Below the pieces are notes generated by a model that worked only from the letters and a program-made list of their open reading frames with translations, was not told where the DNA came from and searched no databases. The translations under genes were made by a program, and so were the position numbers. Shown piece by piece: positions 10,209 to 28,456 of a stretch of DNA of 28,456 bases. Positions within the stretch are counted from its first letter, which is position 1. The number at the start of each line of letters is the position of its first letter. The DNA is from a virus (Duplodnaviria > Caudoviricetes): IMG/VR virus record IMGVR_UViG_3300018423_000047, positions 1 through 28,456 of that record; one strand, given 5' to 3'.

Positions 10209-10559
10209 ATGACAAGCGTTTTTACAATTACTGATCTCGAAACAAACCTCGATTGGACAGTTCGCGTTGTGTTTCAAGGTGACAGGTATGGCCGTGATAT
10301 GTGTCTGGTTCACGATGACATTGAACCAATGATTGAGTTTTATGACGCTGAATATAATTTTGAGAAAGACGTTGATGGCCGTGTTCTAGGTCAGTTTGTT
10401 TCTCGTTACTACGCAGAAACCTTGCTTAATGACCACGATATCTCAAGGGGCCTCAACCTTGATGGCGGCATCCCAAAATGGTCAATCAACGCAGCGTGTT
10501 ATCGCGTCATCATTTGCAACTGCGCAGAGATCATTAACGAGCAAAAGGCGGCGGCTTAA
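10209..10559 (+). CDS. Acidic hypothetical protein, first gene of the rightward (probably early) unit
   Basis: 116 aa with good RBS. Motifs GDRYG...EPMIEFYD...GQFVSRYY...GLNLDGG.P.W. Confidence 0.8.
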   Translation: MTSVFTITDLETNLDWTVRVVFQGDRYGRDMCLVHDDIEPMIEFYDAEYNFEKDVDGRVLGQFVSRYYAETLLNDHDISRGLNLDGGIPKWSINAACYRVIICNCAEIINEQKAAA

Positions 10560-10586
10560 CGGCCCCGCCCCAACCGGGAGACAGTC

Positions 10587-11219
10587 ATGACCAAATACGT
10601 TGCTTACTATCGCGTCTCAACCAAGCGTCAGGGCCAATCCGGCCTTGGCCTTGAGGCGCAGCAGCAGCTTGTCGCGCCGTATGCTGACGACATCCTGCAC
10701 AGCTTCACTGAGGTCGAGAGCGGCAAGAACGATGCCCGGCCACAGCTTGATGCCGCGCTTGCATTGTGCCGCGAGACCGGCGCTTCCATCCTGATTGCCA
10801 AGATCGACCGCTTGTCGCGTGACGCCGCATTCCTGATGTCGCTGCGCAAAGCCGGTGTTGAGATCGTTGCCGCTGACATGCCCAATGCTGGCACGCTGGA
10901 GTTCGGCATCCGCGCCGTATTCGCACAGCACGAGCGCGAAGAGATCAGCAAGCGCACCAAGGACGCTCTCGCCGCCGCCAAGGCGCGTGGCGTCAAACTT
11001 GGCTCACCCAACCCACGCGCTGGCGGCTTTGCCTCTGGCGCAGTACGCCGCGAAAAGCAGCAGGCCGCTGCCACGCAGGCAATGCCTATCATCGCGGCGC
11101 TGCGTGAGGCTGGTGCCTCACTCCGCGCCATCGCCAGCAAACTGAATGATGCTGGCATTCCAACTGCACTCGGCGGCAAATGGTACGCCGCCAGCGTGCG
11201 CAACATCATCAACGCATAG
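10587..11219 (+). CDS. Small serine recombinase (resolvase/invertase family) with C-terminal DNA-binding domain
   Basis: YYRVST (catalytic Ser), QGQSGLGLEAQ, ESGK...RPQL, AKIDRLSR, ERE.IS.RTK.AL.AAKARG..LG, SLRAIA..LN..GI.T..GGKW. GGGAG RBS. Confidence 0.93.
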   Translation: MTKYVAYYRVSTKRQGQSGLGLEAQQQLVAPYADDILHSFTEVESGKNDARPQLDAALALCRETGASILIAKIDRLSRDAAFLMSLRKAGVEIVAADMPNAGTLEFGIRAVFAQHEREEISKRTKDALAAAKARGVKLGSPNPRAGGFASGAVRREKQQAAATQAMPIIAALREAGASLRAIASKLNDAGIPTALGGKWYAASVRNIINA

Positions 11220-11231
11220 AGGAGACAAGTG

Positions 11232-11363
11232 ATGCGTGAAAACATAATCGATGCAATTGGCATGATTATCCTGACCGGCTTGGTCATCGTATTCGGGACA
11301 AGCCTTGTGACTGAGGATTGGAACGTCTGGGCCTTGATGGCTCGCTTTGGGGGAGCAGTGTGA
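11232..11363 (+). CDS. Small membrane protein (43 aa)
   Basis: Below the ORF-track cutoff. AGGAG RBS; [43 protein letters not shown]; TGATG coupling to the HNH gene. Confidence 0.7.
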
Positions 11364-11962
11364 TGGAGATTATTACGCGCCAAGAGGCGGTTGAGCAAGG
11401 TTTGTCGCACTATTTCACTGGCAAGCCTTGCAAGCGGGGTCACATAGATAAGCGACACACAAAAAGAAAAGTGTGCGCCGCTTGTGATGTGGGTCTAACA
11501 AAAAAAGCGCGGGAGATGGCAAAAGAAAAAGGGGCAAAGCACCACGGCAAACCGTGTAAATATGGTCACACACTTCGCTATTCTTGTTCTTTTACTTGCG
11601 TTGAGTGCGCGAGGTTAGACCGAATAAAAAACAAGGCCAAGCGCCAAAAGTATAAGCGCGAATATTATCTAAAAAATAAAGCAAAAATAATTGATTATAT
11701 GAGGGCTTACGAAAAGGCAAATGGTGTCAAAAGCAGGGGAGAAAGCATAAGGCCTATATGTAAGTCTCTGCGTCCATCGATAATGAGGCTCTACAGGAAG
11801 TCTCGTCAAATGAACAAGGATGCTGGATTTATTAAGTATCACGTTGACCACATCGTGCCACTTAAAGGCGAAAATGTTTGTGGTCTGCATGTGCCGTGGA
11901 ATTTGCAGATAATCACGGCTGAAGAAAATCTGCGTAAATCTAACAAATGGGAGACTGTATAA
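11363..11962 (+). CDS. HNH homing-type endonuclease with two N-terminal Cys/His repeats
   Basis: True start probably ATG 11363. Two GKPCK.GH...C..C repeats. C-terminal [38 protein letters not shown]-rich relative to flanks. Confidence 0.9.
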
Positions 11963-12180
11963 TGAGTAACAATAGAAATCATGTATTGGTGTCAGAGTTT
12001 GAGGCTTGGCACAATGATATTAAAATCTCTGCGATGGAGTTTTTTGCAATCAGATATGTCGAAGATGTTTTGCCAACAAAAGAGGAAATCGAATATTTGG
12101 AAAAACATTTTTTGGATGGAGATGACTGCCAGATCGTCATGCTCATCAAAGGACAAATGCAAGAGAGAGGACTGATATAA
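11962..12180 (+). CDS. Small acidic hypothetical protein
   Basis: TAATG overlaps at both ends (start ATG 11962). AT-rich. Confidence 0.65.
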   Translation: MSNNRNHVLVSEFEAWHNDIKISAMEFFAIRYVEDVLPTKEEIEYLEKHFLDGDDCQIVMLIKGQMQERGLI

Positions 12181-13139
12181 TGGTTGGCAAACTGACTAGA
12201 GATGACCAGCTTTCAGCCAGCCGCATCCCGGTTCTACTGAACGCATCACCGTATCAGACCCGCAACGAACTGCTGGCTGAGATGATCGACATCGACCGGG
12301 GAGGCACACCAACCCGCATCCCGCAGAACGAACCGATGTTCTGGGGCGACACGCTGGAAGAGCAGATCCTGACCGTTGCGGCTGAACGCCTCGGCCTCAA
12401 AGATCTGCGCACCAGCTTCCCCGCCGCGTTCCAGCATCCGACACTGCCGCTTGCGGCCAGTCTCGATGGATCTGCCAAGGGCAATCGCAAGTGGGCGTCT
12501 GATCCAGCCAACGGCATCTACACGCCGCAGGGTGGTGACATGATCGACCTGACCGGCGAGATCCTGCTGGAAGCGAAGAATACCAGCGTCATGCCGGAGA
12601 ACCCGCCAGCCGCACATCGCGGTCCTTTGCAGTTGCAGGCCCAGATGATGTGTACTGGCCTCAAAGCCGGGGTCATCGCGGTGCTGTATCGTGGCACTGA
12701 GTTGCGCCTGTTCCTCTACAAAGCCGATCCGGCCATACAGCAACGCATCGTGCTGGCCATCCAAGACTTCGAGGAACGCCGCAAGACTGGTGAGATGTAT
12801 CCAGTGACATCGCCGGAGGATGGCATCGCTGCCTATCCGACCGGCATCGATGACCGGCTGTACTGGGATGATGGCGCAGGCGATGAGGCGACAGCCATTG
12901 ACTGCCTGATGCACGCGCTCAAGCAAAAGGCCAACGCCGAAGAGGACATCGCTGAGTTCACATCATTCCTTATGGACAGGATGGGCCGGTCTGAAGAGGT
13001 TGAGGCGATGGTCGGCAACCGCCGGGTGCTGGTTAAGTGGCCAAGCCGCACATATCGTGCGCAGCCCGAAAAGCTGACCCCGGCCAAGCCGGAGCGCACA
13101 GTTAGATCCAAGACCCTGCAAATCAAGGAACTGGATTGA
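12180..13139 (+). CDS. YqaJ / lambda-exonuclease-like recombination nuclease
   Basis: LSAS, MFWGDTLE, HPTLPLAASLDG, LLEAKN and QLQAQM motifs of the YqaJ family. Confidence 0.9.
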   Translation: MVGKLTRDDQLSASRIPVLLNASPYQTRNELLAEMIDIDRGGTPTRIPQNEPMFWGDTLEEQILTVAAERLGLKDLRTSFPAAFQHPTLPLAASLDGSAKGNRKWASDPANGIYTPQGGDMIDLTGEILLEAKNTSVMPENPPAAHRGPLQLQAQMMCTGLKAGVIAVLYRGTELRLFLYKADPAIQQRIVLAIQDFEERRKTGEMYPVTSPEDGIAAYPTGIDDRLYWDDGAGDEATAIDCLMHALKQKANAEEDIAEFTSFLMDRMGRSEEVEAMVGNRRVLVKWPSRTYRAQPEKLTPAKPERTVRSKTLQIKELD

Positions 13140-13345
13140 TGGCGTTTACAGAGGCACAGAGGCGCATCTGGGATGCGATCAGTATATTCCAGCGGGAATA
13201 CGGCTACACGCCGTCCACGCGGGAATTAGGTCGCTTTATGGGGAAGGGCCAGACCACGATCCAGATGCAATTGACCGGCTTGATCGAGCGGGGCGGGGCT
13301 AGACGCATCAGCAACCGGGCGATAGAATTATTGCCGTTGGAATAA
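13139..13345 (+). CDS. LexA N-terminal-like winged-helix DNA-binding protein (no peptidase domain)
   Basis: TEAQRRIWDAI...GYTPSTRELG...L..L.ERG...RAIEL matches the LexA DNA-binding domain; only ~68 aa. Alternative TTG start at 13136. Confidence 0.8.
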   Translation: MAFTEAQRRIWDAISIFQREYGYTPSTRELGRFMGKGQTTIQMQLTGLIERGGARRISNRAIELLPLE

Positions 13346-16646: not shown

Positions 16647-16975
16647 TAGATGTCACCGTGGGTTATTATCTGTATGCTTTCCCAATCTCCAAGCCCTCCT
16701 GTGGGGGAATAGCAAGACCTAGTTCTTATATAACTTGAACTTAGTGCGCTTACGCCAGAGACATTTCTATTGTAGTTTGTCGACTGGTTTTGATTTGCCA
16801 GCCCACTTGATGAATGGAGGGCGTTTGAGAAGTTAGTCGAAAAGTTTACGCTAAAATCTCCTGTGCCGTGGTCTGTCAGTGAAGATGTATTAAAGCTATC
16901 TCTAAATGCGGATGTGCCGCCATTTATATTTGCCCACGAGCCAGCCGCATGATGGTTAGGTCCAAAGCTAGACAT
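16646..16975 (-). CDS. Small tail-fibre-tip-like protein
   Basis: SWANING...RDSFNTSSLTDHGTGDFSVNF matches the 'AW.NF.G....RDS.N.SS.TD.GTG.Y.VNF' motif recalled from phage fibre C-termini. TAATG-coupled to the fibre gene. Confidence 0.7.
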   Translation of the reverse strand: MSSFGPNHHAAGSWANINGGTSAFRDSFNTSSLTDHGTGDFSVNFSTNFSNALHSSSGLANQNQSTNYNRNVSGVSALSSSYIRTRSCYSPTGGLGDWESIQIITHGDI

Positions 16976-19900
16976 TATTTAGCCTCCATATCAGCAATAC
17001 GCTGTTCCAGTTGTTCAATCTTACGATGTGCATCCTGCAACGCAGACACCAATATCGGCGTAATGCGTCCGTAGTCCATAGACATCATCGCATCTTCATC
17101 ATCGCCAGCAGCCACGGCCTCTGGCATTACCTCTTGCATCTCTTGTGCAATAAAGCCCATAGAACGTGGGCCGTCAGGGTCAGCCTTCCAGTTGTACGAC
17201 ACTGGGTTCATCGCCATCAGCTTGTCGGTAGCGACTAGCGGTTCGATGTTTTCCTTGAGGCGTAGGTCGGAGGTGGTGTTGTAGGTGGTGCCGGATGTGG
17301 TGATGCTTATTATTCCAACCGTAGCCCCAGCTTTACTAAACGCCAAAACAGTACCGTCTGTACCCTCACGGTTCATATTTGAACAGCTGTCGCTGGTATT
17401 TGATAAGTACAGTTTGTTGTTTGAGTTTAGTTCCACTCCATCTGAGCGATAGTTTGCAGATGTTTTGCCGTGCAAGAAATTCCCTGACGAATCCAGCCTC
17501 GCCCTTTCGCTAGGGCTACCTGACCCTGTGTAAAATCGCAATGCGCCATTTTCAGCTTCAAGGTTGAGGTTGTTTGGGCTTTCAATCGCATTATTTACAC
17601 GGATGTCGCCTTCAACGTGTAGCTTATCACTAGGACTCGCAGTGCCGATGCCCACCGAGCCATCCGATGTGATGCGGACTTTTTCAGCCAGTGTTCCATT
17701 GTTAATTGTAGCAAACGTAATTCTTGTGTCTTCCGAAGCGGGAGTGCCATCTTCCAACGTAGTGTCGATGTAGCTTATTTTTGTTGTGCCGTAGTAAGCC
17801 GCAAGGTTGATACCGCCGCCGCCGCCAACAGAATTGTCAACGCCAAAAAAGCCGTAGTTAGCTGTCGGTGTCATCACTGCGAGACGCCCATAACTGGAGG
17901 GACTCGTAGTTCCCAGCCCAAGCCGCTGTGTCGAGGCATCCCAGTAGAAACCTTGCGTGGTGCCTGTTGAATCATACAGTGCCACATCGTTAGAGTTATC
18001 AATAAGAAGTGATGTTTTGCTCTGGTTTATAAATTTAGTCTGACCGCTCGAATTGTTTGCTATAGTAAGTTCATCGGTTGTCACAGAACCTTGCACATAA
18101 AAGTTAGAAAAGCCTATTTGTAACTTTGATGTAAACGCGTCAGGATATGTAAGTAGTAATTGTCTGTAACCGTCTGTGCTTATAGTCAACCCATCCGCAG
18201 TCAGCACTCCGGTGATGACCGCGCCAGTGGCACTGGTGGCGAGTTTTTCTGAGCCATCGTAATAAAGTTTTACATCTGCGTTTTCATTAAACAAAGCAAC
18301 ATATTCTGTATGTCCAGTGTTTGTAATTGCAACACTATCAGCTTCTAATCTTAGCTGACCTGTCCCAGCATCTTGAATGTAACTATTAGCATTTGCACTA
18401 TCGTGATAAATCTGCAAGTCAGACCCAGCACCAAAAACGGCCTTGTCGTTGTCGCCGAAATTGATGTCGCCTGTCATCGTGCCGCCAGTTGTGGGCAAGA
18501 AGCCAGAGCCAGCCGTTACACCCTGCTCCCAAGCAGCACCAGTGTACACCTTCAACGTGTCTGTGGTGGTATTGTAGAACAAATCACCTTCATCGTTGTC
18601 CACTGTTGGGTCAGATGCGCCAATACGATACTTGTCAGCAAAGTCGTTGACCGATGAGATGTTAGTCGCAACGGTGTTGACATTAGAGATTGAACCGCCA
18701 ACTGAGTTTACGTTTGCAATGTTGGTAGCCACAGTGCCGATGGTGTCAGTGCCAGTAAGGTTAGTGGCTACCGTACCAATGTCAGTCGCATCTGCTGCGA
18801 CAGCCGTCACATCAGAACTAATCCCCGCAACTGTCGTAACATTGCCGCTAATCCCAGCAACGGTTGTCACGTTGCCTGAGATGCCAGCGACAGTGTTAAC
18901 ATTGCTGATTGCGCCAGCTACTGTGCCGATGTCAGTGCCATCAGCCGCAACCGTAGTAACATCGCCGCTGATGCCAGCAACCGTAGTCACGTTGCCAGAG
19001 ATCCCGGCCACGGTTGTGACGTTTGCGCTGATACCAGCAACCGTTGTGACGTTGGCGTTATTGCCAGCCACGGTGTTGACGTTGGCAATGTTGGTGCCAA
19101 CCGTATCGACATTGGCGATGCTGGCCGCAACCGTCTCAATCTCCGATACCGCCTCATTGAGATCGTTGGCTACCGTCTCAACCTCGGACACCGCTTCATT
19201 CAGATCGTTGGCAACAGCAACAACCTCACTGATGTTGCCAGCCACTGTGTTGACAGACGCAATGTTGGTGGCAACGGTTCCGATGTCAGTGGCATCGCCA
19301 GCAACAGCCGTCACATCCGCTTGGATGCCAGCCACTGTGCTGACGTTTGATGCGATGCCAGCGACTGTCGTGACGTTGGCTGAGATCCCGGCCACTGTCT
19401 GAATGGCATCAGTCGCATCGGTGCCGTCCTCGATGTCTGCCAGCGTAGCAATATCGGTGGCGATGTCAGCCAACGCCGTCACATCGGTGCTGTCAGGCCC
19501 GGCCTCTGGGTTGCCGGTGGTGCTGTTAAACTGGAGGTACTTACCAGCACGCGCCGCCTTGGCAGGCAGTGTCATGTCCAGCGTGCCGCCATCAGCCACA
19601 AGGGCCGGGTCGTAAACAGGCGCACGCAGCGTCCTGGCATTCTCTTCGGCAAGCTGCTGATCAAAGATGGTGAGCGCATCAAGCTGCTCATTGAGGCTGG
19701 ATGCCAGCAGATCACCCGCTGTCACAAAGTCGGTTACGCGCTCGATGTCGCGTGCGCCAACGATGATGATGCTGTCAGACGCAGTTGGCGTTGATGGTAC
19801 AGAACTGCCGGTCACAATCGTCACTGAGCCGGTGCCATTGGCGTTGATCGTCACAGTGTAGTCTGTGGTCAGCGTCAGCAGCGTGGTGTTGAAATACACC

Positions 19901-20010
19901 GCAACATCGTTCTCGTCCAACACCTCAAACGTGAAGGCGTATGGCCCAAGCCCGGCTGAACCAGTGAACACGACCCGGCGCGTGATTGCATTAATGTTGT
20001 AGTCAGCCAT
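16975..20010 (-). CDS. Tail fibre protein with T7 gp17-like N-terminal anchor and C-terminal intramolecular chaperone (peptidase S74)
   Basis: N-terminal YAFTFEV.DE.DV.VY...LTTDYTV...LNEQLDALT; NVTTVAGI repeats; GIGTASPSDKLHVEG repeats; TSDLRLKENI autocleavage motif, GFIAQE, MDYGRITPILV.ALQ. Confidence 0.93.
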   Translation of the reverse strand: MADYNINAITRRVVFTGSAGLGPYAFTFEVLDENDVAVYFNTTLLTLTTDYTVTINANGTGSVTIVTGSSVPSTPTASDSIIIVGARDIERVTDFVTAGDLLASSLNEQLDALTIFDQQLAEENARTLRAPVYDPALVADGGTLDMTLPAKAARAGKYLQFNSTTGNPEAGPDSTDVTALADIATDIATLADIEDGTDATDAIQTVAGISANVTTVAGIASNVSTVAGIQADVTAVAGDATDIGTVATNIASVNTVAGNISEVVAVANDLNEAVSEVETVANDLNEAVSEIETVAASIANVDTVGTNIANVNTVAGNNANVTTVAGISANVTTVAGISGNVTTVAGISGDVTTVAADGTDIGTVAGAISNVNTVAGISGNVTTVAGISGNVTTVAGISSDVTAVAADATDIGTVATNLTGTDTIGTVATNIANVNSVGGSISNVNTVATNISSVNDFADKYRIGASDPTVDNDEGDLFYNTTTDTLKVYTGAAWEQGVTAGSGFLPTTGGTMTGDINFGDNDKAVFGAGSDLQIYHDSANANSYIQDAGTGQLRLEADSVAITNTGHTEYVALFNENADVKLYYDGSEKLATSATGAVITGVLTADGLTISTDGYRQLLLTYPDAFTSKLQIGFSNFYVQGSVTTDELTIANNSSGQTKFINQSKTSLLIDNSNDVALYDSTGTTQGFYWDASTQRLGLGTTSPSSYGRLAVMTPTANYGFFGVDNSVGGGGGINLAAYYGTTKISYIDTTLEDGTPASEDTRITFATINNGTLAEKVRITSDGSVGIGTASPSDKLHVEGDIRVNNAIESPNNLNLEAENGALRFYTGSGSPSERARLDSSGNFLHGKTSANYRSDGVELNSNNKLYLSNTSDSCSNMNREGTDGTVLAFSKAGATVGIISITTSGTTYNTTSDLRLKENIEPLVATDKLMAMNPVSYNWKADPDGPRSMGFIAQEMQEVMPEAVAAGDDEDAMMSMDYGRITPILVSALQDAHRKIEQLEQRIADMEAK
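18650..19460 (-). repeat. Degenerate coding tandem repeats (mostly 30 nt / 10 aa, plus 42 nt / 14 aa) in the fibre shaft
   Basis: Many (N/D)V(T/N/S)TVA(G/T)(I/N)(S/I)(A/G) units, ANDLNEAVSE(V/I)ETV twice, and D(A/G)TDIGTVA three times. Confidence 0.9.
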
Positions 20011-20064
20011 CTCTGTGCCTCATTTTGTTGTGTGCATTATACACTAATCCAAGATCCCTTGTAA
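20011..20064 (-). promoter_or_regulatory. Possible sigma70-type promoter and RBS upstream of the tail fibre gene
   Basis: Perfect TATAAT at 20041-20036, a weak -35 (TTACAA) 17 nt upstream, and a GAGG RBS before ATG 20010. Confidence 0.4.
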
Positions 20065-23000
20065 GGTGGGTTTAGCTGGAGCCGCCAGCCTTGGGTATCT
20101 CTTTTTGTTTTTTGCAATTGCCAGCATTTCGGCAAATGCAGGGAACTCAATCCGCATATCATCGAGGCCATAATCCGACAGATCTTCTGGCGTCAGTGAA
20201 TACTCATATCTTCCGGGGTTCATCGGATCTTCTTGGATAGCCCCAAACATTCGCGCCTTTGCAATCTTGCGGTATTGGCCAACTATGTTAGCGACCATTG
20301 AACGCATGTCGCCTATAGGCACATCACTGCCATATATGCCTTCCACTTTGTACTCTTCCATCATTTCGCCCATAGTTGACTTGATGTTCTCTTCGAGGCT
20401 CATGCCATCAATCATAATTTGTTTTGAGTACAATTCAGCAAACCGCTTTTTAATATCTGATGGTATTTTGACGCCATCAATGGCGCGTGGCACTTCTGGC
20501 GGCGAGTATTGAATAGCATCCAAAAACTCAAGCACCTCATTGCTCTCACCCTTTGATACGGTGAGCGGGATCCAAGCAGAGTTTTCTGACATGCCGATTT
20601 CATTGCCCCACTTGTCCAGCTTCGCCGGCAACCCGGTCGAATAGTATGGGATGCGAGAGCGCCATCTATTCATAGCCTCACCAAAGCCAGCCAATGCCGG
20701 ATGATACTCATCACCCACGCCGACATCTCTGACGGTCGGATCAATGGCCCTCTCAATGCGCGATGCCATCGTGCTGTTACTCATGCCGGCAATCGGGATG
20801 GCATTGATGTAAAAGCTGGAATACCGCTTCACAAAAGCATTCCATATTTTCATGCCACGATCGCCGGCTGTCTCTTGCCTGTATCCGGCAATTGCCATCA
20901 TCTCAGAGAATGTTTGCATTGTCGGTATAGATGTGGCGTATTCAGAAACACCAGCCATACCAGCGCTAAATGCAGTGTCAAACATTGTGTTATCTGGATC
21001 GTAGCCGTCATACTTAACTGCATCAGCAATAGCAGCGCCCATCAAAAAGGGCATGTTTGCCGGCTCAAGGCGATTGAGCGGGATAAAGTAGCTGTCGCCA
21101 AAGTCCTCGCCAGTGCCGTCACCAAAATTTTCCTCGCCGATGATTTCTCTAAGCTGCGACACAAGATCGGATGGAACCTCATCCTTTCCAACCCGGAGCG
21201 AGAACTCGCGCCAGCCCCTGCTTTTCAAATCGTTTCTCTGGCCTGTGTCGCCGGGGCCAGCGCCTGTGACCCTGCCCCGCCCTGCTACCTCATAGCCTGC
21301 CCATATCATAGCGCCACCAAGCGCAAGCCGGCTAATAGCTAGATCACGATGACGCCCACCCTTTTGCCAGTCACTCCAAAAACGCGCAGACAACAACGCA
21401 AGCGGCCCAGATCTAGCCGCGCCCTCATTGGCAATGTTTGTTAAGGTTTTGGAAAACGGCGCAAGCGGCTTGATGTACCATTTGTTCATCAGTTTGTTTG
21501 CGCCGGCATAGATGCCAGCCATAGGCAGTTCTCTGTCGAGATCGTCCTGCAACGTGGCTTGCTTGCGCCAAGCCTGAACAGACGCCTCGACATCTGCCGG
21601 GCGCTCAGACAATAATTTTTGCACGGCACGTTGGCCAGCTTCTATAGCTTGCGCGTGAGCCGTTTTTTCTTCTGCGCCGCGTGCGATCAGATCTGCAAAT
21701 GTTTGGTCAAACACCTCACCGCCAAGACGCGCAGCCTCTTCATGCAACTGCACCCGCTGGGCAACCCCGGCAAAAAACTCATCGGCGGCACCAAGCGCTC
21801 TAAATGGCAGGCTGTAAACAAGCCCCATCCCATTAAATGCTTTGCCAAGTGCGGTGTCTGTAAGATCAGGGAACTCCCTAATTTGCTTGGTGAACGGTAT
21901 TCTGTAAGGCGCACCCGCCCAATATTCTGCACGCAGCGGATCGCGTGGCGCATCCTTCGCCGCGCCAGCCTCCACAAACTTGCGGCCCATCATGCCCCAA
22001 CCATCGACCAATCCATTGCGAATGCCAGACAGCCGCGCATAGATATCTGCACCATAGTATTGATCTGGGTTGGCCTTACCAACAAGCGCCTCAAGCCCCT
22101 TTCGCAAAGGCGCTACAGCAACTGCGCCCATACGTTCAGGCACATCTAAGAACTGCATCAGTGCGTTGCCGGCGGCGTTGTACATATGGGTGGTGTAATC
22201 GTTCAGCATGACCGACTGCGCCATATAGACCATAGATTCATAAGCCTTGCGCCTGACGCTGTTACGCAGCAAAGCGTTGCGTGCGGCCTTGCTGTTTGTG
22301 CTGTTGTATGTCTCAGCCAGCAAACGCAGTTGATCGTCACCACCAAGGTTATCAAGCGCGGCACGCATTTCATTGATGCTCACACCAGCGCGTTGGCCTT
22401 GGATCCCCTTAAACACATTCATTGAACGCGCTATGTCAGTTTTTGCGCCAGCAAGTTCTGCCATTATAACATTGTGCTGCGCAATAGCTTCCCGGGCCTC
22501 TAGCTTGCCGGCATCGTCAAGTTCATTTCTTGCCGCCAGCCGCAAATACTCATCAACCCTTTCCGCGCTTGCCCTTTCAAGCAAAACGAGGCCGGCCATA
22601 CGCTGGTTGAGTTGATCATTGCCAATGGGGGTGGACATTGGCTGGCCACCAAATATAGCGTCCAAATTTTCTTTTGGAGTGCCAGCCTCTATGGCAGCAT
22701 CGTAAATCTCGCCAATAGTTCTTGGCTTTATTGCAATGAGTGCGCCGTCATCCACGGCTTTTGCTGTGGCTTGTATTGTAGCCGCCAGACCATCATCATC
22801 ATAAAAGCGGGTGTTGACCGGGCCTTTAACCAGCCCAGCCTCTAGTTGCGCCGCTGATGGCGATGGCACCTCACGCGGTGTGCCTATCTCAGCCTCTCTA
22901 GCCGCAGCCAATGTTTCAAGTTCTGCCTCACTGACAGGCGCTGGTTTGACAGGTTGCGGTGCTTCAGCTTCTGGCGCTAACTCGATGCGGGGGCCAAGCG

Positions 23001-23196
23001 GCATTTCACCAACTGCTGGCGCTTCAACCGCCTCAACCACTTTGGATCTTGGTGAGATCCGCGCACCGGGCTTGGTCAAAGGCTGGATTAATTCACGAGT
23101 GACGCCCCTAGATAACTTGGAAACAACGCTTGCTGGTTGAATACCATCTTCTTGGTCGGCCATATCTGGAACAGGAATGTCTCTAGGAGTTGCCAT
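20044..23196 (-). CDS. Large internal virion (ejection) protein, T7 gp16-like position
   Basis: 1050 aa, helical and Ala-rich, directly upstream of the tail fibre. RALGAADEFF, PFSKTLTNI, GRVTGAGP and RLEP motifs are typical of podoviral internal virion proteins. Confidence 0.8.
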   Translation of the reverse strand: MATPRDIPVPDMADQEDGIQPASVVSKLSRGVTRELIQPLTKPGARISPRSKVVEAVEAPAVGEMPLGPRIELAPEAEAPQPVKPAPVSEAELETLAAAREAEIGTPREVPSPSAAQLEAGLVKGPVNTRFYDDDGLAATIQATAKAVDDGALIAIKPRTIGEIYDAAIEAGTPKENLDAIFGGQPMSTPIGNDQLNQRMAGLVLLERASAERVDEYLRLAARNELDDAGKLEAREAIAQHNVIMAELAGAKTDIARSMNVFKGIQGQRAGVSINEMRAALDNLGGDDQLRLLAETYNSTNSKAARNALLRNSVRRKAYESMVYMAQSVMLNDYTTHMYNAAGNALMQFLDVPERMGAVAVAPLRKGLEALVGKANPDQYYGADIYARLSGIRNGLVDGWGMMGRKFVEAGAAKDAPRDPLRAEYWAGAPYRIPFTKQIREFPDLTDTALGKAFNGMGLVYSLPFRALGAADEFFAGVAQRVQLHEEAARLGGEVFDQTFADLIARGAEEKTAHAQAIEAGQRAVQKLLSERPADVEASVQAWRKQATLQDDLDRELPMAGIYAGANKLMNKWYIKPLAPFSKTLTNIANEGAARSGPLALLSARFWSDWQKGGRHRDLAISRLALGGAMIWAGYEVAGRGRVTGAGPGDTGQRNDLKSRGWREFSLRVGKDEVPSDLVSQLREIIGEENFGDGTGEDFGDSYFIPLNRLEPANMPFLMGAAIADAVKYDGYDPDNTMFDTAFSAGMAGVSEYATSIPTMQTFSEMMAIAGYRQETAGDRGMKIWNAFVKRYSSFYINAIPIAGMSNSTMASRIERAIDPTVRDVGVGDEYHPALAGFGEAMNRWRSRIPYYSTGLPAKLDKWGNEIGMSENSAWIPLTVSKGESNEVLEFLDAIQYSPPEVPRAIDGVKIPSDIKKRFAELYSKQIMIDGMSLEENIKSTMGEMMEEYKVEGIYGSDVPIGDMRSMVANIVGQYRKIAKARMFGAIQEDPMNPGRYEYSLTPEDLSDYGLDDMRIEFPAFAEMLAIAKNKKRYPRLAAPAKPTLQGILD

Positions 23197-23199
23197 TGT

Positions 23200-23340
23200 T
23201 TATTCCTCTGGCTGATCTGCCTCTTTTGGCTCTGCTTGCATCGGCATTTGTTCGCGGCTGTCATACAAAGCCGCAACTAATGCCATTACATTATTCGATT
23301 TTTGTTCCGGCTGCTCTGATGAGTTCGTCAAGTTTTCCAC
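23200..23340 (-). CDS. Unannotated small acidic protein (46 aa)
   Basis: GTG at 23340 with AAGGAG 6 nt upstream. MENLTNSSEQPEQKSNNVMALVAALYDSREQMPMQAEPKEADQPEE. Fills the gap between two large genes; its TAA is 3 nt before the next ATG. Confidence 0.6.
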   Translation of the reverse strand: MENLTNSSEQPEQKSNNVMALVAALYDSREQMPMQAEPKEADQPEE

Positions 23341-25792
23341 GATTTACTCCTTCGTATTCGTACCAAGGTATGCTGCCACCTTCAAAAGACTTTACTCCCG
23401 GGAAGTCAGGCGGCAAAACTCCAGACTTTTTCTTGAAAGCCTCGCTAAACATATCATCTAGTTCTTGCTTTGTGAATTGATATGGTTCGCCAGCACTTGT
23501 TTCGTATATGTATCTAAATGAACCATCTGGCATCTTTTCATATTTAGCGCCAGAATATTTTTGATGGAAGCGGCCCTCCATAACAGGAACATTTGCCGTT
23601 GGCGTTGCCTTACGCTCTGATGTTCTGACAACAGTTTCTAATGTTGGGTGTGCCACAATTTGTCCAGATGCGCGCACCCAACTTTCCCAGTGATATCGGC
23701 CTACAGTTCCCTCTTCAGTGCGGCCTGCCATTCTATATAATTCTGGAACCCGATCCATCAATGATCTTTCCAAAGCCTCATATTGGGCAAGCCCTTGTGA
23801 CGTATCAAACTGCGCCATTATATCATCATAGACCTTGTCACCGCCGGCCCACATCTGGTTTATCTGGATGCGATCAAGAACAACAACATCATTCCTGCCT
23901 GACACAAGCAAGGCAAAAGATAGGATTTTATTTTTAATTCCTGTATCTTCCGCTAGCCCATAATATGCGCGTCTCAAATCGCGGCTGGACATATTTGGGT
24001 TTGCTATCATTTCGTGCAAGCGCGTCAATGCTGATTTGCCTGTCTCATCAACGGCGGCCATTTTTTTCAAAAACACTTTGCCAAAATCATTTGCGTTGCT
24101 TGTTGCTGATTTGCCGGGGCTACCTGTTGGTATTGTGGCTTTAACCATTTTCAGCCACCCGGCTGTATCAGCATCTGACCACTCTCCACGCGCTGCCTTT
24201 TCAATGAATGGCATTGCTTTTTCAGCCAAGTCTTTATATCCGCTTTCATGTGGGAATGCTGACAGCCGGCGCGACAAAATAGACCATAACATAAGTTGGC
24301 CAGTCAGTTCTGCACCAGCACCAGCCTCATATGCAGCCTTAAATCTTTCTTGAACAGCAAGGCCGTCATTAGCGGCTTTGATTTGTGCCGGGGTTAATTG
24401 CTTGAACCAATCAGACCATTTGTTCATATCATTGGCATGCTCAATCATCCAGACTGGTGGCGCTGGAGTTTCTTGCTTATTCAATGTTTTTGACATCATG
24501 TTGACATAGTTTTGGGCTGATGCCAGAGGATCTGGAAATTCTTGTGCAATTTCATCAAGCCTAAATGATTGCTCCCCAAAGTTATTTGGGGTCATTTTAG
24601 CTGCAACAAACATCTCATTTTTACGGCCAAGTTGCACCGGCTCATATGCTGGGTTTGTCACTGTATATTTTCCCGGCACGCCGATGATGTTGGTGTCGGC
24701 TTCGGTGCGCGGCGTAAATACAGGCTGCAAATCTTGGCCCTGCGCCATTTTGCCCATAGCCGCAAGCGCCGGGTCAATCACCTCCATTGGATCAACGCCT
24801 GACATGACGCGGCTTGTTATAGGGCCACGCTCTGCCATACGCGCCTCCGCAGCCTCGCCAGCGGCCACAACCCCCCTGCTGACAGCCGGCGCGACCTCTT
24901 CAGCGGCACCACCAAAGAGTTTGCCCAACAACCCGCCAGCGCCAGCGCCAGCAACACTTGTTGTCAACGTCCTCATAACGGCTTCTTTCAAAGACGGCGG
25001 CATACCAGCCGCTGTCTCTAGGATCATATTTGCACCCTCATATAGATCTGCGTAAGCAGCGCCAGCAATTGCGCCACTCTTGCCCGGCGCACGCTTTGCA
25101 AGCTGCGTGGTAAACCCGGCTGTTTTGGCGGCAGCCATCAGCATTTGACGCGCTGTCATGCTGCTGGTTTTCATTGCAGCGGCTTTGAGAAACGGCGCGG
25201 TAATGCCGCCGGCAAAAGTAGCGTATGTTTCTGGAGCGCCAAACAAAGCGCGGAATGACCGTTTAATTGTTTCGCCTTCTGTTTTGGTGTCAGCATATGT
25301 GTTGAGCAGAAACAAGAAATCGTTGGCGTTGTTTTCTTTGGTTACCAAATTGCCATCCAAGTCTGTGTAACCGCCACTGTTTACGATGTTCCAAACTTGG
25401 CCAATCATGCCGGGCGAACTAATCCCAGCCTCTCCGGGGAACCCAGCGGGGCCAGTTACATTCCAATTAAACTCAGACATCAGATCCATACCATAGGCAG
25501 CGGCCTGTTTGTCAGATCCAATAAACTCATACCCCTCCATTACGCGATACATGCGTTTCGACACCTCGATCCAATCCGGCATCATTTCCAATTGATCTTC
25601 AGTGTATTTTGGTTTTGTTGTTGGCGGCGAATAGCTTTCGTCCATAAATGTGCCAGAAAACCCCATTTCAGCGGGGCGCTCTTGCGCATTTTCTCTGGTG
25701 GCGTCTATTTGCAAAAAAGATCTTTGATCGGCTTGCTGGTTGTGCATGTCAGCAAGTTCATCCATCACCCTATCTTCTAAAAACCCATTCAT
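23291..25792 (-). CDS. Internal virion-locus protein with C-terminal HhH-GPD (Ogg2-like) DNA glycosylase/lyase-like domain
   Basis: 833 aa. Gly/Ala-rich hydrophobic segments at ~190-300. GIKNKILSFALLVSGRNDVVVLDR has K622 and D640 spaced 18 apart. Also LMLWSILS, YEALE and HWESW. ATGA-coupled to the upstream internal virion gene. Confidence 0.7.
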   Translation of the reverse strand: MNGFLEDRVMDELADMHNQQADQRSFLQIDATRENAQERPAEMGFSGTFMDESYSPPTTKPKYTEDQLEMMPDWIEVSKRMYRVMEGYEFIGSDKQAAAYGMDLMSEFNWNVTGPAGFPGEAGISSPGMIGQVWNIVNSGGYTDLDGNLVTKENNANDFLFLLNTYADTKTEGETIKRSFRALFGAPETYATFAGGITAPFLKAAAMKTSSMTARQMLMAAAKTAGFTTQLAKRAPGKSGAIAGAAYADLYEGANMILETAAGMPPSLKEAVMRTLTTSVAGAGAGGLLGKLFGGAAEEVAPAVSRGVVAAGEAAEARMAERGPITSRVMSGVDPMEVIDPALAAMGKMAQGQDLQPVFTPRTEADTNIIGVPGKYTVTNPAYEPVQLGRKNEMFVAAKMTPNNFGEQSFRLDEIAQEFPDPLASAQNYVNMMSKTLNKQETPAPPVWMIEHANDMNKWSDWFKQLTPAQIKAANDGLAVQERFKAAYEAGAGAELTGQLMLWSILSRRLSAFPHESGYKDLAEKAMPFIEKAARGEWSDADTAGWLKMVKATIPTGSPGKSATSNANDFGKVFLKKMAAVDETGKSALTRLHEMIANPNMSSRDLRRAYYGLAEDTGIKNKILSFALLVSGRNDVVVLDRIQINQMWAGGDKVYDDIMAQFDTSQGLAQYEALERSLMDRVPELYRMAGRTEEGTVGRYHWESWVRASGQIVAHPTLETVVRTSERKATPTANVPVMEGRFHQKYSGAKYEKMPDGSFRYIYETSAGEPYQFTKQELDDMFSEAFKKKSGVLPPDFPGVKSFEGGSIPWYEYEGVNRGKLDELIRAAGTKIE

Positions 25793-27552
25793 CGCAATTC
25801 ATCCCGCAAAACAATGTTTTTCTGCACAGTAGAAATTTTGGAAATAATTGTCGTTAGATCTGCGTCACTTATTCCCCACGCCCTTTGATTTGCGCGGACC
25901 TCTTCTGTTGTGGTGTATTCATTAAACACATCACCATATTTTTCATTAAGCGAACTAAGGGTCGCATCAATAACCTTTTGGTATTTGCTGCTGGCAAGTT
26001 CCAATCTGTATTCTCTAGCTATGACATCTTTTCTGGGGCGTGACCCTGTTTCGCCGCCCTCTTGCCAAGCGGCTACGGCGTCATCAAACCGCCTCTCTAC
26101 ATTTGCGATAAAACTGTTTACTGCCTTGGCTTGGTTAACCTTAACATTAATCATGCCTGTCGTAAGCCCTGCATGTTTTCGAGCCTCATCATCGACAGCA
26201 TTGTTGATCCGCAACTGCGTGCTGTCTAAGTATGTCGTCAAACCGTTTGTTTGTTTTGGCCCTAAACCAAGTTCTTCTGCTTTGGCTGCAAGCTGGAGGA
26301 AATCAACAATTTGTCCATTGCGAATTAATGTTTTGATTGCGAACACCAAACTTGGTTTTTCTTCTTCGTAATACCCAGCTTGTCGTATTGTTTGTTTTGA
26401 CTTGGCCAGCGCCACAATCCCCTGACCATCAATCACTTCTGGGTAATTCATTGCTGTTTCACCCAATCGGCCAAGCGCGTCATTCGCCTCAACGCTGCCG
26501 TCATCGTTCTCCATAAATGCCAGCACATCTAGCACTGTGTCTTGTCTTGCAGTTAACACGCCATCTGCACGCGCTTGGTCATCTGCGTTTTGCCGCGCAA
26601 TGATTTCATCACGCACCTGTTTGCGCAACACTGCCTTGCTTGTGTCATCTAATGTGTTGAATAGTGCGGTCTTGTCGCCAAAGTCGCCAGTGCGTAACGC
26701 TGACAATCTTTTCTCTTCAGGAAGATTGACGGCGTGTTCTGTCAATACATTTATCTTTGCTGTTGTTTTGATGCCCTCAAACTTAGACATCTCTGTTGTT
26801 GCAAAGTTGGCGTCATTAGTCGCAATCAATTGGTCGCTAATCGAACGCTGGAGATTGTCAGCCTCGCCATCTGTTCGCAGGATAGATGTTCCATCTTGTA
26901 AAAGTACAACGCCGCCCTTGTCTGTGCGATAAATGTCCTCAAACGATTGCAACGCACCAGCCATAGCATCAAGACCTTTTGCCTTGGCTATTGCTTGGCT
27001 CATTTTTATTTCGCGCTCAAGGGCTTTTGAATATACCGGCGCGGCCATTGTGGCAACAGACGCAGAAAAAGCATTGGCAATAGTTGGGTCAAGTTGCGAC
27101 AGCAATTCTGTGTGGCCGGCTTGAACGCCATTGATTGCAGTTATTTCTGCCATCAAATCTATGTCAGCACCGCCATCAACCTTCGCACTTAAAGCAGCAA
27201 GCTGGCTTCTGACGCCGGCCTCAAGTTCTGTCTTTAACTTAGATGCAGTGCTGGCGATTGACACAGACCCAAAAACTGTTGTTGGGTCTCCAATAATTTC
27301 CTCAATAGATCGCCCGGCAGATAGTGCTGCTTGCAATTGCTCTGCTGACAGATCCTGATCATAGGCCCATTGCTCGGCTTCAAACTTTGTTTTTGCCTCT
27401 TCTTTTGTCGCCACATACCGCTGCATCACATCAAGGCCGCGAGATATGTTTTCGTAAACACGCGCCTGCGCTCTGCCTGTTGATACAAAATCAACAGTTG
27501 GTATTGATGGGATTGCTACGCCTAATGGGCGATATCTTGGAAGCTCGGCCAT
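25789..27552 (-). CDS. Internal virion (ejection) protein, T7 gp15-like position
   Basis: 587 aa, helical; MAELPRYRP start; lies between the gp14-like gene and the larger internal proteins. Confidence 0.75.
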   Translation of the reverse strand: MAELPRYRPLGVAIPSIPTVDFVSTGRAQARVYENISRGLDVMQRYVATKEEAKTKFEAEQWAYDQDLSAEQLQAALSAGRSIEEIIGDPTTVFGSVSIASTASKLKTELEAGVRSQLAALSAKVDGGADIDLMAEITAINGVQAGHTELLSQLDPTIANAFSASVATMAAPVYSKALEREIKMSQAIAKAKGLDAMAGALQSFEDIYRTDKGGVVLLQDGTSILRTDGEADNLQRSISDQLIATNDANFATTEMSKFEGIKTTAKINVLTEHAVNLPEEKRLSALRTGDFGDKTALFNTLDDTSKAVLRKQVRDEIIARQNADDQARADGVLTARQDTVLDVLAFMENDDGSVEANDALGRLGETAMNYPEVIDGQGIVALAKSKQTIRQAGYYEEEKPSLVFAIKTLIRNGQIVDFLQLAAKAEELGLGPKQTNGLTTYLDSTQLRINNAVDDEARKHAGLTTGMINVKVNQAKAVNSFIANVERRFDDAVAAWQEGGETGSRPRKDVIAREYRLELASSKYQKVIDATLSSLNEKYGDVFNEYTTTEEVRANQRAWGISDADLTTIISKISTVQKNIVLRDELR

Positions 27553-28022
27553 TATGTTACCTTTGTTATTTCGCCAGCCGGCGCTGTGCCAAGCTGTTTG
27601 TCAAAAGCGTAAGCCTGACCAAATGCAGTGGCGGCGTTAGCAACGCCTGCCAGCATAGTCGCTTTTGCCTGCATCATGCGTTGATCAGCTTGCATCATGC
27701 CAGTGCGGATAGCAATCAATGCGCCATCATCAGACAACTGCTTTTCTTCAATGCCTTTAGCCAACGCAAAATCTGACAAGGTTTTCGCGCTGCCGCTGAA
27801 TGGATCTATGCCGCCGGCACCGGCTCTAGCAACAATTAAGGCATCTGTTTGCAAGATGTTTTCCAAAACCTTTACGCCTTGTTGCTTGTACTTTAGCGCC
27901 TCAGATCTGGCTTGTACCTTGTCCATAGCCGCCTGCGAGGCCAAGCCCTTGGCCTGCGCTCTCGCGGACATCATAGATGTTGCCGCTTGCAGACCAGCCA
28001 CAATGTACATTGGATTTGCCAT
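27552..28022 (-). CDS. Internal virion protein, T7 gp14-like
   Basis: Likely start ATG 28022. Ala/Gln-rich with an ARAGAGGIDPFSGSA motif. Directly downstream of tail tubular protein B. Confidence 0.75.
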   Translation of the reverse strand: MANPMYIVAGLQAATSMMSARAQAKGLASQAAMDKVQARSEALKYKQQGVKVLENILQTDALIVARAGAGGIDPFSGSAKTLSDFALAKGIEEKQLSDDGALIAIRTGMMQADQRMMQAKATMLAGVANAATAFGQAYAFDKQLGTAPAGEITKVT

Positions 28023-28023
28023 C

Positions 28024-28456
28024 TTACTGCCCCACACTCACTTTGTAATCGATCCCAAGTAATGTCATCTTTAACGGCACATCCTGACCAATCGTGATCT
28101 GGCCGTCATAAGTATACCCTAAAATGCCGTGCAATGTCTTGATGCCGGTAAACTCATCAACTGCGCCATCAAGAACAGCCGCGCCGAAATTGCGGAACGG
28201 CACCTCTTTGCCCTCAATCGTCATTGCCTGCGTCTCGAACAATTCCGCATTAACCTCAAAGATCCGTTTCTTAAAGCCCTTTAGAGAGCCGCTGGGCAGG
28301 TTTGGCTCAACCGGCAGTGTCTTTACCTCCGGCGTAAAGTTGAGGCCGACCTGATAGCTTGTAGAGGCCGCAGTGGCAAAGGTCACAGTGTAAGGTGATC
28401 CCGGCACTGTCTGATCCGGCTCGATGACACCATCGCGGATGATCTTGACTGTTGCC
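28024..28456 (-). CDS. Tail tubular protein B / nozzle (T7 gp12-like); 3' end only, truncated by window edge
   Basis: The frame is open to the window end (ATVKIIRDG...TVP). VGLNFT.EVKTLP, KKRI, FTGIK and I.QDVPLKMTLLGI motifs match the C-terminus of podoviral nozzle proteins. Confidence 0.85.
   Translation of the reverse strand, partial: ATVKIIRDGVIEPDQTVPGSPYTVTFATAASTSYQVGLNFTPEVKTLPVEPNLPSGSLKGFKKRIFEVNAELFETQAMTIEGKEVPFRNFGAAVLDGAVDEFTGIKTLHGILGYTYDGQITIGQDVPLKMTLLGIDYKVSVGQ

Follow-up and report, generated by a model that had tools for sequence, protein, structure and literature searches.

Base-excision enzymes are repair proteins that have lately also emerged as bacterial anti-phage weapons; Brig1, which has a uracil-DNA glycosylase fold, is reportedly such a host-encoded anti-phage glycosylase. 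Dag1 and Dag2, which have a helix-hairpin-helix (HhH) fold, target 7-deazaguanine phages through a Lys, an Asp and a Trp (bioRxiv 10.1101/2025.10.29.685425). On the phage side, the MuF polymorphic toxins of temperate phages combine a carrier encoded in the virion locus, a variable C-terminal enzyme and a small downstream open reading frame (ORF), and also occur as short forms without cargo (PMC5576092); the small downstream ORFs of these head proteins mark toxic forms (89% versus 26%; PMC5576092 section 8). Here, we describe a locus with the same general layout in a stretch of 28,456 nucleotides (the window), which covers positions 1 to 28,456 of the IMG/VR record IMGVR_UViG_3300018423_000047 (Duplodnaviria; Caudoviricetes). 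Its central gene (23291..25792, minus strand, as are all features below unless stated otherwise) encodes P0001, an 833-residue carrier-plus-cargo protein whose C-terminal domain has the predicted fold of an Ogg2 DNA glycosylase and whose 3' end overlaps a small conserved partner gene.

Dag1, Dag2 and Brig1 are repair folds turned to conflict, as we propose for the domain of P0001; however, they are host-encoded and act against phages, whereas P0001 is phage-encoded and likely virion-borne. In contrast to the MuF toxins, P0001 comes from an ejection locus in a tail module of podovirus type, carries a glycosylase-fold cargo and has a partner that overlaps it in the +1 frame; no MuF domain was matched on it in Pfam or PHROG. 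Searches of Pfam, PHROG and NCBIfam with P0001 were all without match, and literature searches, conducted mostly outside subscription papers and supplements, returned no account of an HhH glycosylase that is packaged in a virion or ejected from it. The locus is a real, previously unannotated effector cassette, its glycosylase fold being a prediction.

A predicted glycosylase domain with an altered pocket

The ORF of P0001, its Ogg2-like motifs and the spacing of 18 residues between K622 and D640 are all present as given in a preliminary description made from the DNA sequence. The domain had been placed at residues 495-715; the motifs do lie there, but the conserved region is larger and spans about residues 401-833, comprising an Ogg2-like HhH-GPD core (about 455-715; 23648..24430) and a 118-residue C-terminal extension (716-833; 23294..23647). 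An AlphaFold2 model of the domain shows a two-lobed helical HhH-GPD fold whose best structural matches are Ogg2 enzymes, in agreement with the fold first proposed. The extension is ordered in the model as a three-stranded sheet with helices, is not found in Ogg2 and had no clear match in the PDB.

A homologue search over all 50%-identity representatives detected the domain in 363 clusters (E<=0.001), and conservation was assessed in an alignment of 152 sequences (the window protein, 150 listed matches and one further homologue). The two residues to which catalysis had been assigned, the predicted Schiff-base lysine K622 (23927..23929) and the predicted catalytic aspartate D640 (23873..23875), are present in 152/152, together with G618, S625, G632, D635, W503, S507, E516, N566, H593 and R607. 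K622 stands at the start of model helix 221-230 and D640 directly before model helix 241-249, and they align with the Lys and Asp of Ogg-HhH. F626, at position K+4, is found in 151/152. The predicted base pocket H701-W705-Q711-H715 (23648..23692) is near-invariant (H701 in 150, W705 in 149 and H715 in 148 of the 152, the remainder being nearly all gaps). The register of K622 and D640 derives from a weak HHalign comparison and the model, that of H701 and W705 with the Ogg2 Asp and Trp from weak HHalign.

The solved Ogg2 enzymes (TmOgg 3n0u, MjOgg 3fhf/3knt and SsOgg 3fhg) share 12-16% identity with the domain. In Ogg2, the carboxylate of the C-terminal Lys reads N7-H of 8-oxoguanine (8-oxoG), Asp194 is the counterpart of OGG1 Gln315, which bonds N1, and the base is stacked by Trp198; at position K+4, Ogg2 has His whereas AGOG has Phe (PMC3397491). 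The stacking Trp is retained as W705, whereas Asp194 is replaced by His701 and the K+4 His by Phe626. The last Ogg2 residue, Lys207, aligns with model residue 315, which is H715, and the chain continues for another 118 residues to position 833. The domain is therefore no Ogg2 enzyme, the Lys that senses 8-oxoG and the Asp that reads guanine having apparently been replaced by His715 and His701, and its pocket is likely tuned to another base, as the preliminary description had supposed. Its further clue to substrate, the loss of the His that follows 'DR', carries little weight: in Ogg enzymes, this His touches the phosphate (PMC3397491 section 2.5) and is hardly informative about the base. The domain also differs from Ogg2 in its fusion to a virion carrier and its pairing with a partner gene. 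Its hairpin reads G618-I-x-N-K and lacks the second Gly of the canonical xPG[VI]GxK. We consider it highly probable that the domain is catalytically active, and predict that it acts like a bifunctional HhH glycosylase.

Another possible relative is DUF7178 (PF23802), a family of small phage proteins, some of which are annotated as 'glycosylase' in mycobacteriophages. The two share the K-x17-D spacing and occupy the same slot in sister phages, and an Atlas feature match of 0.93 (with the family on 22-33% of cluster members) points in the same direction. However, DUF7178 has Q-x3-W where the domain has H-x3-W, and the HHalign comparison between them was not significant; the DUF7178 Pfam profile matched nothing in the genome at E<=1 and none of 35 members (0/35). 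A literature search for 'DUF7178' returned 0 papers. Separately, an actinobacterial genome (L101, G384:C27) contains a frame of 1718 codons with DUF7178 inside a polyvalent-looking protein; its relatives in mycobacteriophages are small genes located close to the right-hand genome end, again with some annotated as 'glycosylase'.

An interchangeable cargo on a shared carrier

Among 121 near homologues, column identity is mostly 50-90% in the cargo (residues 401-833) and falls to 12-40% in the variable N-terminal carrier (1-400; 24593..25792), which is likely the ejection or packaging part. The carrier is Gly/Ala-rich between residues 171 and 350 (G+A 35%). Its profile matches gp25 (18.5 bits, E 3e-7 among 5 proteins), a cargo-less 161-residue protein at the equivalent position in the Methylophilales phage MEP301, which is the nearest cultured phage as judged by tail tube B (46%). 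The slot of MEP301 thus holds a bare carrier alone.

To survey the slot, loci were selected by tail tube B and not by the domain, yielding 77 new loci, 30 of which span the slot; the classes are motif-based and the loci not deduplicated. The slot contained the present domain in 11 cases, a DUF7178-like cargo in 8, a GNAT-like cargo in 6 (a motif call, with Atlas as its sole lead at 0.81-0.83), an ADP-ribosyltransferase (ART-PolyVal-like) in 4 and a bare carrier in 1. The 11 copies of the domain form two subclades that share about 32% identity. Six near-identical backbones bear five cargo types, the two subclades being counted apart: across these loci, identity is 80-95% in the upstream gene, 71-95% in the carrier and 89-98% in the downstream gene, against 20-33% for the cargoes. 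The exchange of the C-terminal domain in related phages, envisaged at the outset, is thus observed. Because the slot is polymorphic and the carrier of MEP301 is bare, the enzyme is accessory and interchangeable with macromolecule-modifying enzymes; such enzymes have been reported as injected effectors (PMC5512222, PMC7824862, PMC9503650).

Several alternative cargoes deserve separate mention. Four loci (L129:14369-16894, L138:13913-16447, L126 and L117) have a two-part cargo without Pfam or NCBIfam match, whose C-terminal part appears GNAT-like (Atlas lead <0.9) and contains its own 48-residue acidic ORF, nested in the +1 frame and led by a Shine-Dalgarno (SD) sequence. In L114 (6830-9484), L142 and L176, a DUF7178-like cargo (weak Pfam match) is followed by an unannotated domain of ~300 residues and an acidic overlapping ORF of 51-52 residues. 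L111 and L113 have a tail tube B that is 98% identical to that of the window and carry an ART cargo, the whole ejection module having been exchanged (identity to the window of 52% for the small gene, 27% for the 587-residue protein and 25% for the 1050-residue protein). Judging by these identities, swapping occurs at the module level besides the cargo level.

In distant phages, the domain sits within proteins of 1.3-4.8 thousand residues. Matches to LPD22/23/37/38 or ART-PolyVal were found in 27/36 giant homologues scanned, some of the ART matches being below gathering score, and some giants additionally match PHROG virion, head or DarB-like families. LPD and ART-PolyVal domains occur in proteins predicted to be injected by phages (PMC5512222, PMC9503650). 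The companions of the domain in its giant homologues are LPD22/23/37/38, ART-PolyVal, ddrB-ParB, InPase and GNAT domains; this company and a neighbourhood of virion genes are shared with the phage polyvalent proteins (Iyer et al., 2017, PMC5512222). The word 'glycosylase' is absent from the main text of that paper, whose supplements, outside this search, might list the domain under another name. P0001, encoded among virion genes, differs from the polyvalent giants in that its cassette combines one cargo with a nested partner. The idea that the giants are fusions of P0001 with the 1050-residue protein of the window was upheld for 1/103 records of more than 1300 residues (P0200). In two giants (L065:1733-1972 and L070:11247-11483), the nested partner ORF is lengthened to about 80 residues by a second predicted helical segment.

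A conserved partner gene in the +1 frame

The preliminary description held that the P0001 gene is ATGA-coupled to its neighbours. This is correct for the upstream gene; downstream there is instead a gap of 94 nt, which encodes a conserved peptide corresponding to the second half of a partner ORF. The partner gene (23200..23340) encodes 46 residues from a GTG start and begins inside the last codons of the enzyme, whose Glu-Gly-Val-Asn-Arg codons spell AAGGAG, six bases and GTG, so that the SD sequence (23347..23352) lies within the Glu-Gly-Val codons. The +1 frame is open over at least 35 codons in 57/59 distinct loci, compared with 2/59 for the control +2 frame. Codon usage is biased at the critical positions: the Gly codon in the SD sequence is GGA in 40/47 (background 13%) and the Arg codon is CGT in 43/58 (background 20%). 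In the non-overlapping part, differences among 11 loci are distributed 121/43/35 over codon positions 3, 1 and 2. An amphipathic helix and a PMxP motif are common to the partner peptides; the helix motif reads L[FW/V]xxL...PMxP, and the tail is acidic. The partner ORF is kept, fully nested, in loci that have the domain in the interior of a giant protein.

Conservation of this kind indicates that the partner gene is real. A +1 frameshift extension of the enzyme is disfavoured by the codon bias at the SD sequence and GTG and by an in-frame stop that precedes the GTG by two codons. An ATG derived from PWYE was rejected as universal partner start, as in 35/64 loci a stop interrupts the +1 frame shortly after it; a few clades may use this ATG. 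When the last 330 nt of other cargo genes were scanned, short SD-led overlapping ORFs unrelated to the partner were found at 5/6 DUF7178-like or GNAT-like cargo ends, and none for 4 ART cargoes, the bare carrier or one unclassified cargo. With variable C-terminal cargoes joined to one common carrier and a small cognate ORF behind them, the locus has the layout of polymorphic toxin-immunity systems.

A possible injected effector with its antidote

Since the cargo is swappable and is accompanied by a conserved overlapping gene of 46 codons, the locus has, at the sequence level, an effector-plus-immunity architecture. P0001 is very probably packaged and ejected, and the partner is rather likely to be an inhibitor of the enzyme. 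We tentatively favour a chain of events in which a virion-ejected carrier delivers a swappable Ogg2-fold glycosylase/AP (apurinic/apyrimidinic) lyase against host DNA, the 46-residue partner silencing it in the producer cell. Enzyme and partner would be made late in infection from one mRNA stretch, the partner from its own ribosome-binding site. The partner would then bind the enzyme and spare the progeny DNA. By analogy and from its locus, the carrier may load the protein into the head, from which it would pass unfolded through the tail, shedding the partner. After refolding in the new cell, a base would be flipped into the pocket of H701, W705 and H715; if the chemistry resembles that of known enzymes, D640 would aid cleavage of the glycosidic bond and K622 would form the Schiff base, with abasic sites or nicks as the outcome. 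The least certain step is the target, which is likely not 8-oxoG and might be a purine or a host-marked base of the host chromosome, whose excision would weaken early defence or transcription. It is similarly possible, in our view, that a widespread class of aquatic phages bears interchangeable DNA glycosylases (the domain in its two subclades and the DUF7178 types) on an ejection protein, injects them offensively against host DNA and pairs each with a cognate +1-frame antidote.

Several points weigh against this proposal. The main weakness is that the enzyme enters beside its own genome, whose sparing is unexplained; a scan of 54 ORFs from the window and an overlapping relative (L109), many of these ORFs being unannotated, recognised neither base-modification nor methylase genes. 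Possible answers are the small number of injected copies relative to a much larger chromosome, or a mark specific to the host. The window encodes a resolvase-family recombinase and, if the phage is temperate, heavy damage to the host would be costly. ART cargoes lack a detected partner, so that partner presence is no general rule of the slot, and the partner could act as a chaperone in folding or loading. The loci are related, so that the counts are not independent, although the partner signal extends to homologues at about 30% identity. Packaging, activity, toxicity and binding are predictions from sequence and a structural model. Statistical support for the HhH assignment is also weak: the best Foldseek E-value was 3.5e-3; HHalign to Ogg-HhH gave E 0.11, which is not significant; and the Ogg2 family profiles PF22175 and PRK01229 were each matched by 1/35 members (E 0.025 and 0.088) without reaching their cut-offs (12 bits against 183 for PRK01229). 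HHalign against small Nth/MutY, Ogg-HhH and DUF7178 alignments and a profile comparison with 11 Nth/MutY/AlkA-type proteins yielded nothing significant, PDB sequence searches nothing relevant, and tblastn of the domain against 50,697 cultured-phage records no match.

Alternative explanations

Removal of a defence-system base modification from phage DNA was one of three functions offered in the preliminary description, next to oxidative repair and attack on modified host bases. P0001 would then be an injected editor that strips a base adduct from the incoming phage DNA, with host repair filling the gap and the partner limiting off-target cutting. Early delivery fits the protection of one incoming genome, the altered pocket and the 118-residue extension could admit a bulky adduct, and quick swapping of cargoes suits host-specific defences. 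However, an enzyme specific to a rare adduct would hardly have to be inhibited, and abasic sites are risky in a lone incoming genome; we regard this explanation as unlikely.

Repair of oxidative damage acquired by the free virion (8-oxoG, formamidopyrimidine or AP sites), with the entering phage genome as substrate, now appears as a weaker option and is improbable. The nearest solved folds are those of 8-oxoG glycosylases and the habitat labels are aquatic. Moreover, a backbone carbonyl near H715 could serve as 8-oxoG sensor by reading N7-H, as does the main-chain carbonyl of OGG1 Gly42, and the Phe at K+4 recalls AGOG (PMC3397491 section 2.4). Yet the domain lacks both the C-terminal Lys sensor and a counterpart of Asp194, and the option is weakened because the cargo is dispensable, interchangeable with non-repair enzymes (ADP-ribosyltransferase and GNAT-like domains) and accompanied by a small dedicated partner gene.

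Quite improbable, too, is a weapon directed at the modified bases of co-infecting phages or elements, by which the virion would carry an activity of the kind known from the Dag1 and Dag2 glycosylases. The lack of recognised modification genes in this phage would resolve the question of self and non-self. However, Dag1 keeps D-x3-W (D184, W188) where the domain has H-x3-W, an inhibitor would be unnecessary, and a few injected copies would act for a short time only.

Lys-Schiff-base adducts can persist for long. A non-turnover DNA-binding or covalent capping domain might escort or shield the entering genome, the partner being its chaperone; the fusion to ejection-type proteins and a unique extension that may clamp DNA would suit this role. 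We consider it very unlikely, as the catalytic and pocket residues are all near-invariant and such a role would not be exchangeable with ART or GNAT-like cargoes, nor absent. Lastly, an HhH-fold base-modifying transferase, such as the phage amino acid:DNA transferases (aGPT-Pplase2), is largely refuted and hardly credible, given that these enzymes require a catalytic Cys (PMC8989533) and P0001 has no Cys in its 833 residues.

Neighbouring genes and genome context

In domain-bearing loci, the gene order is tail tube B, a small gene, a gene for ~590 residues, the P0001 homologue, an internal virion gene for ~1000 residues and the tail fibre. In the window, P0001 is flanked by genes for 587 and 1050 residues, with tail tube B upstream and the tail fibre downstream. 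The upstream gene (25789..27552), joined to P0001 by an ATGA junction, encodes a likely ejection protein; it has no family match in Pfam or PHROG, its syntenic homologue being gp26 of MEP301. The 1050-residue protein (20044..23196) is a gp16/protein D-like internal virion protein: it matches PHROG 6651 'internal virion protein' (E 9.6e-9), and its tblastn matches are annotated 'internal virion protein (D)'. This bears out the virion-ejection context first described. A gene for 161 residues after tail tube B (27552..28037), conserved in position and syntenic with MEP301 gp27, likely encodes a small ejection protein. In the MEP301 record (L216, 14031-17130), gp24 corresponds to the N-terminal half and gp23 to the C-terminal half of what is one internal virion gene (~950 residues) in relatives, reflecting either a split gene or a sequence frameshift.

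The virus record, of 28.5 kb, is about 82% complete and encodes a terminase, a primase-helicase, YqaJ, a resolvase, a lysozyme, a tail fibre and a tail tube. Its DNA is also present in salt-marsh and freshwater metagenome runs. P0001 is not an assembly artefact, because the gene is also present, on one contig, in an independent DNA run (23117-25817, 8 differences). A short plus-strand block (10209-13345), encoding the resolvase-family recombinase, an endonuclease VII-like protein and the YqaJ exonuclease, is flanked by two minus-strand arms; MEP301 likewise encodes resolvase and YqaJ genes, which bears on the question of a temperate lifestyle. The tail fibre (16975-20010) contains a long tract of VxTVAG repeats and a C-terminal Peptidase_S74 chaperone, and its length and C-terminus are highly variable across relatives.

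Implications

The present work assigns a predicted fold to an unannotated domain of 363 clusters. The slot provides a natural comparison set of putative injected effectors on a common carrier, and the partner, which standard gene callers likely miss, is a candidate for a peptide that inhibits an HhH glycosylase. If the proposed injected effector with its antidote is true, the family would be a source of new glycosylase specificities and of small glycosylase inhibitors. Phages would then use base-excision chemistry in the first seconds of infection, ahead of phage gene expression, in what would be a phage-side mirror of Brig1 and Dag immunity.

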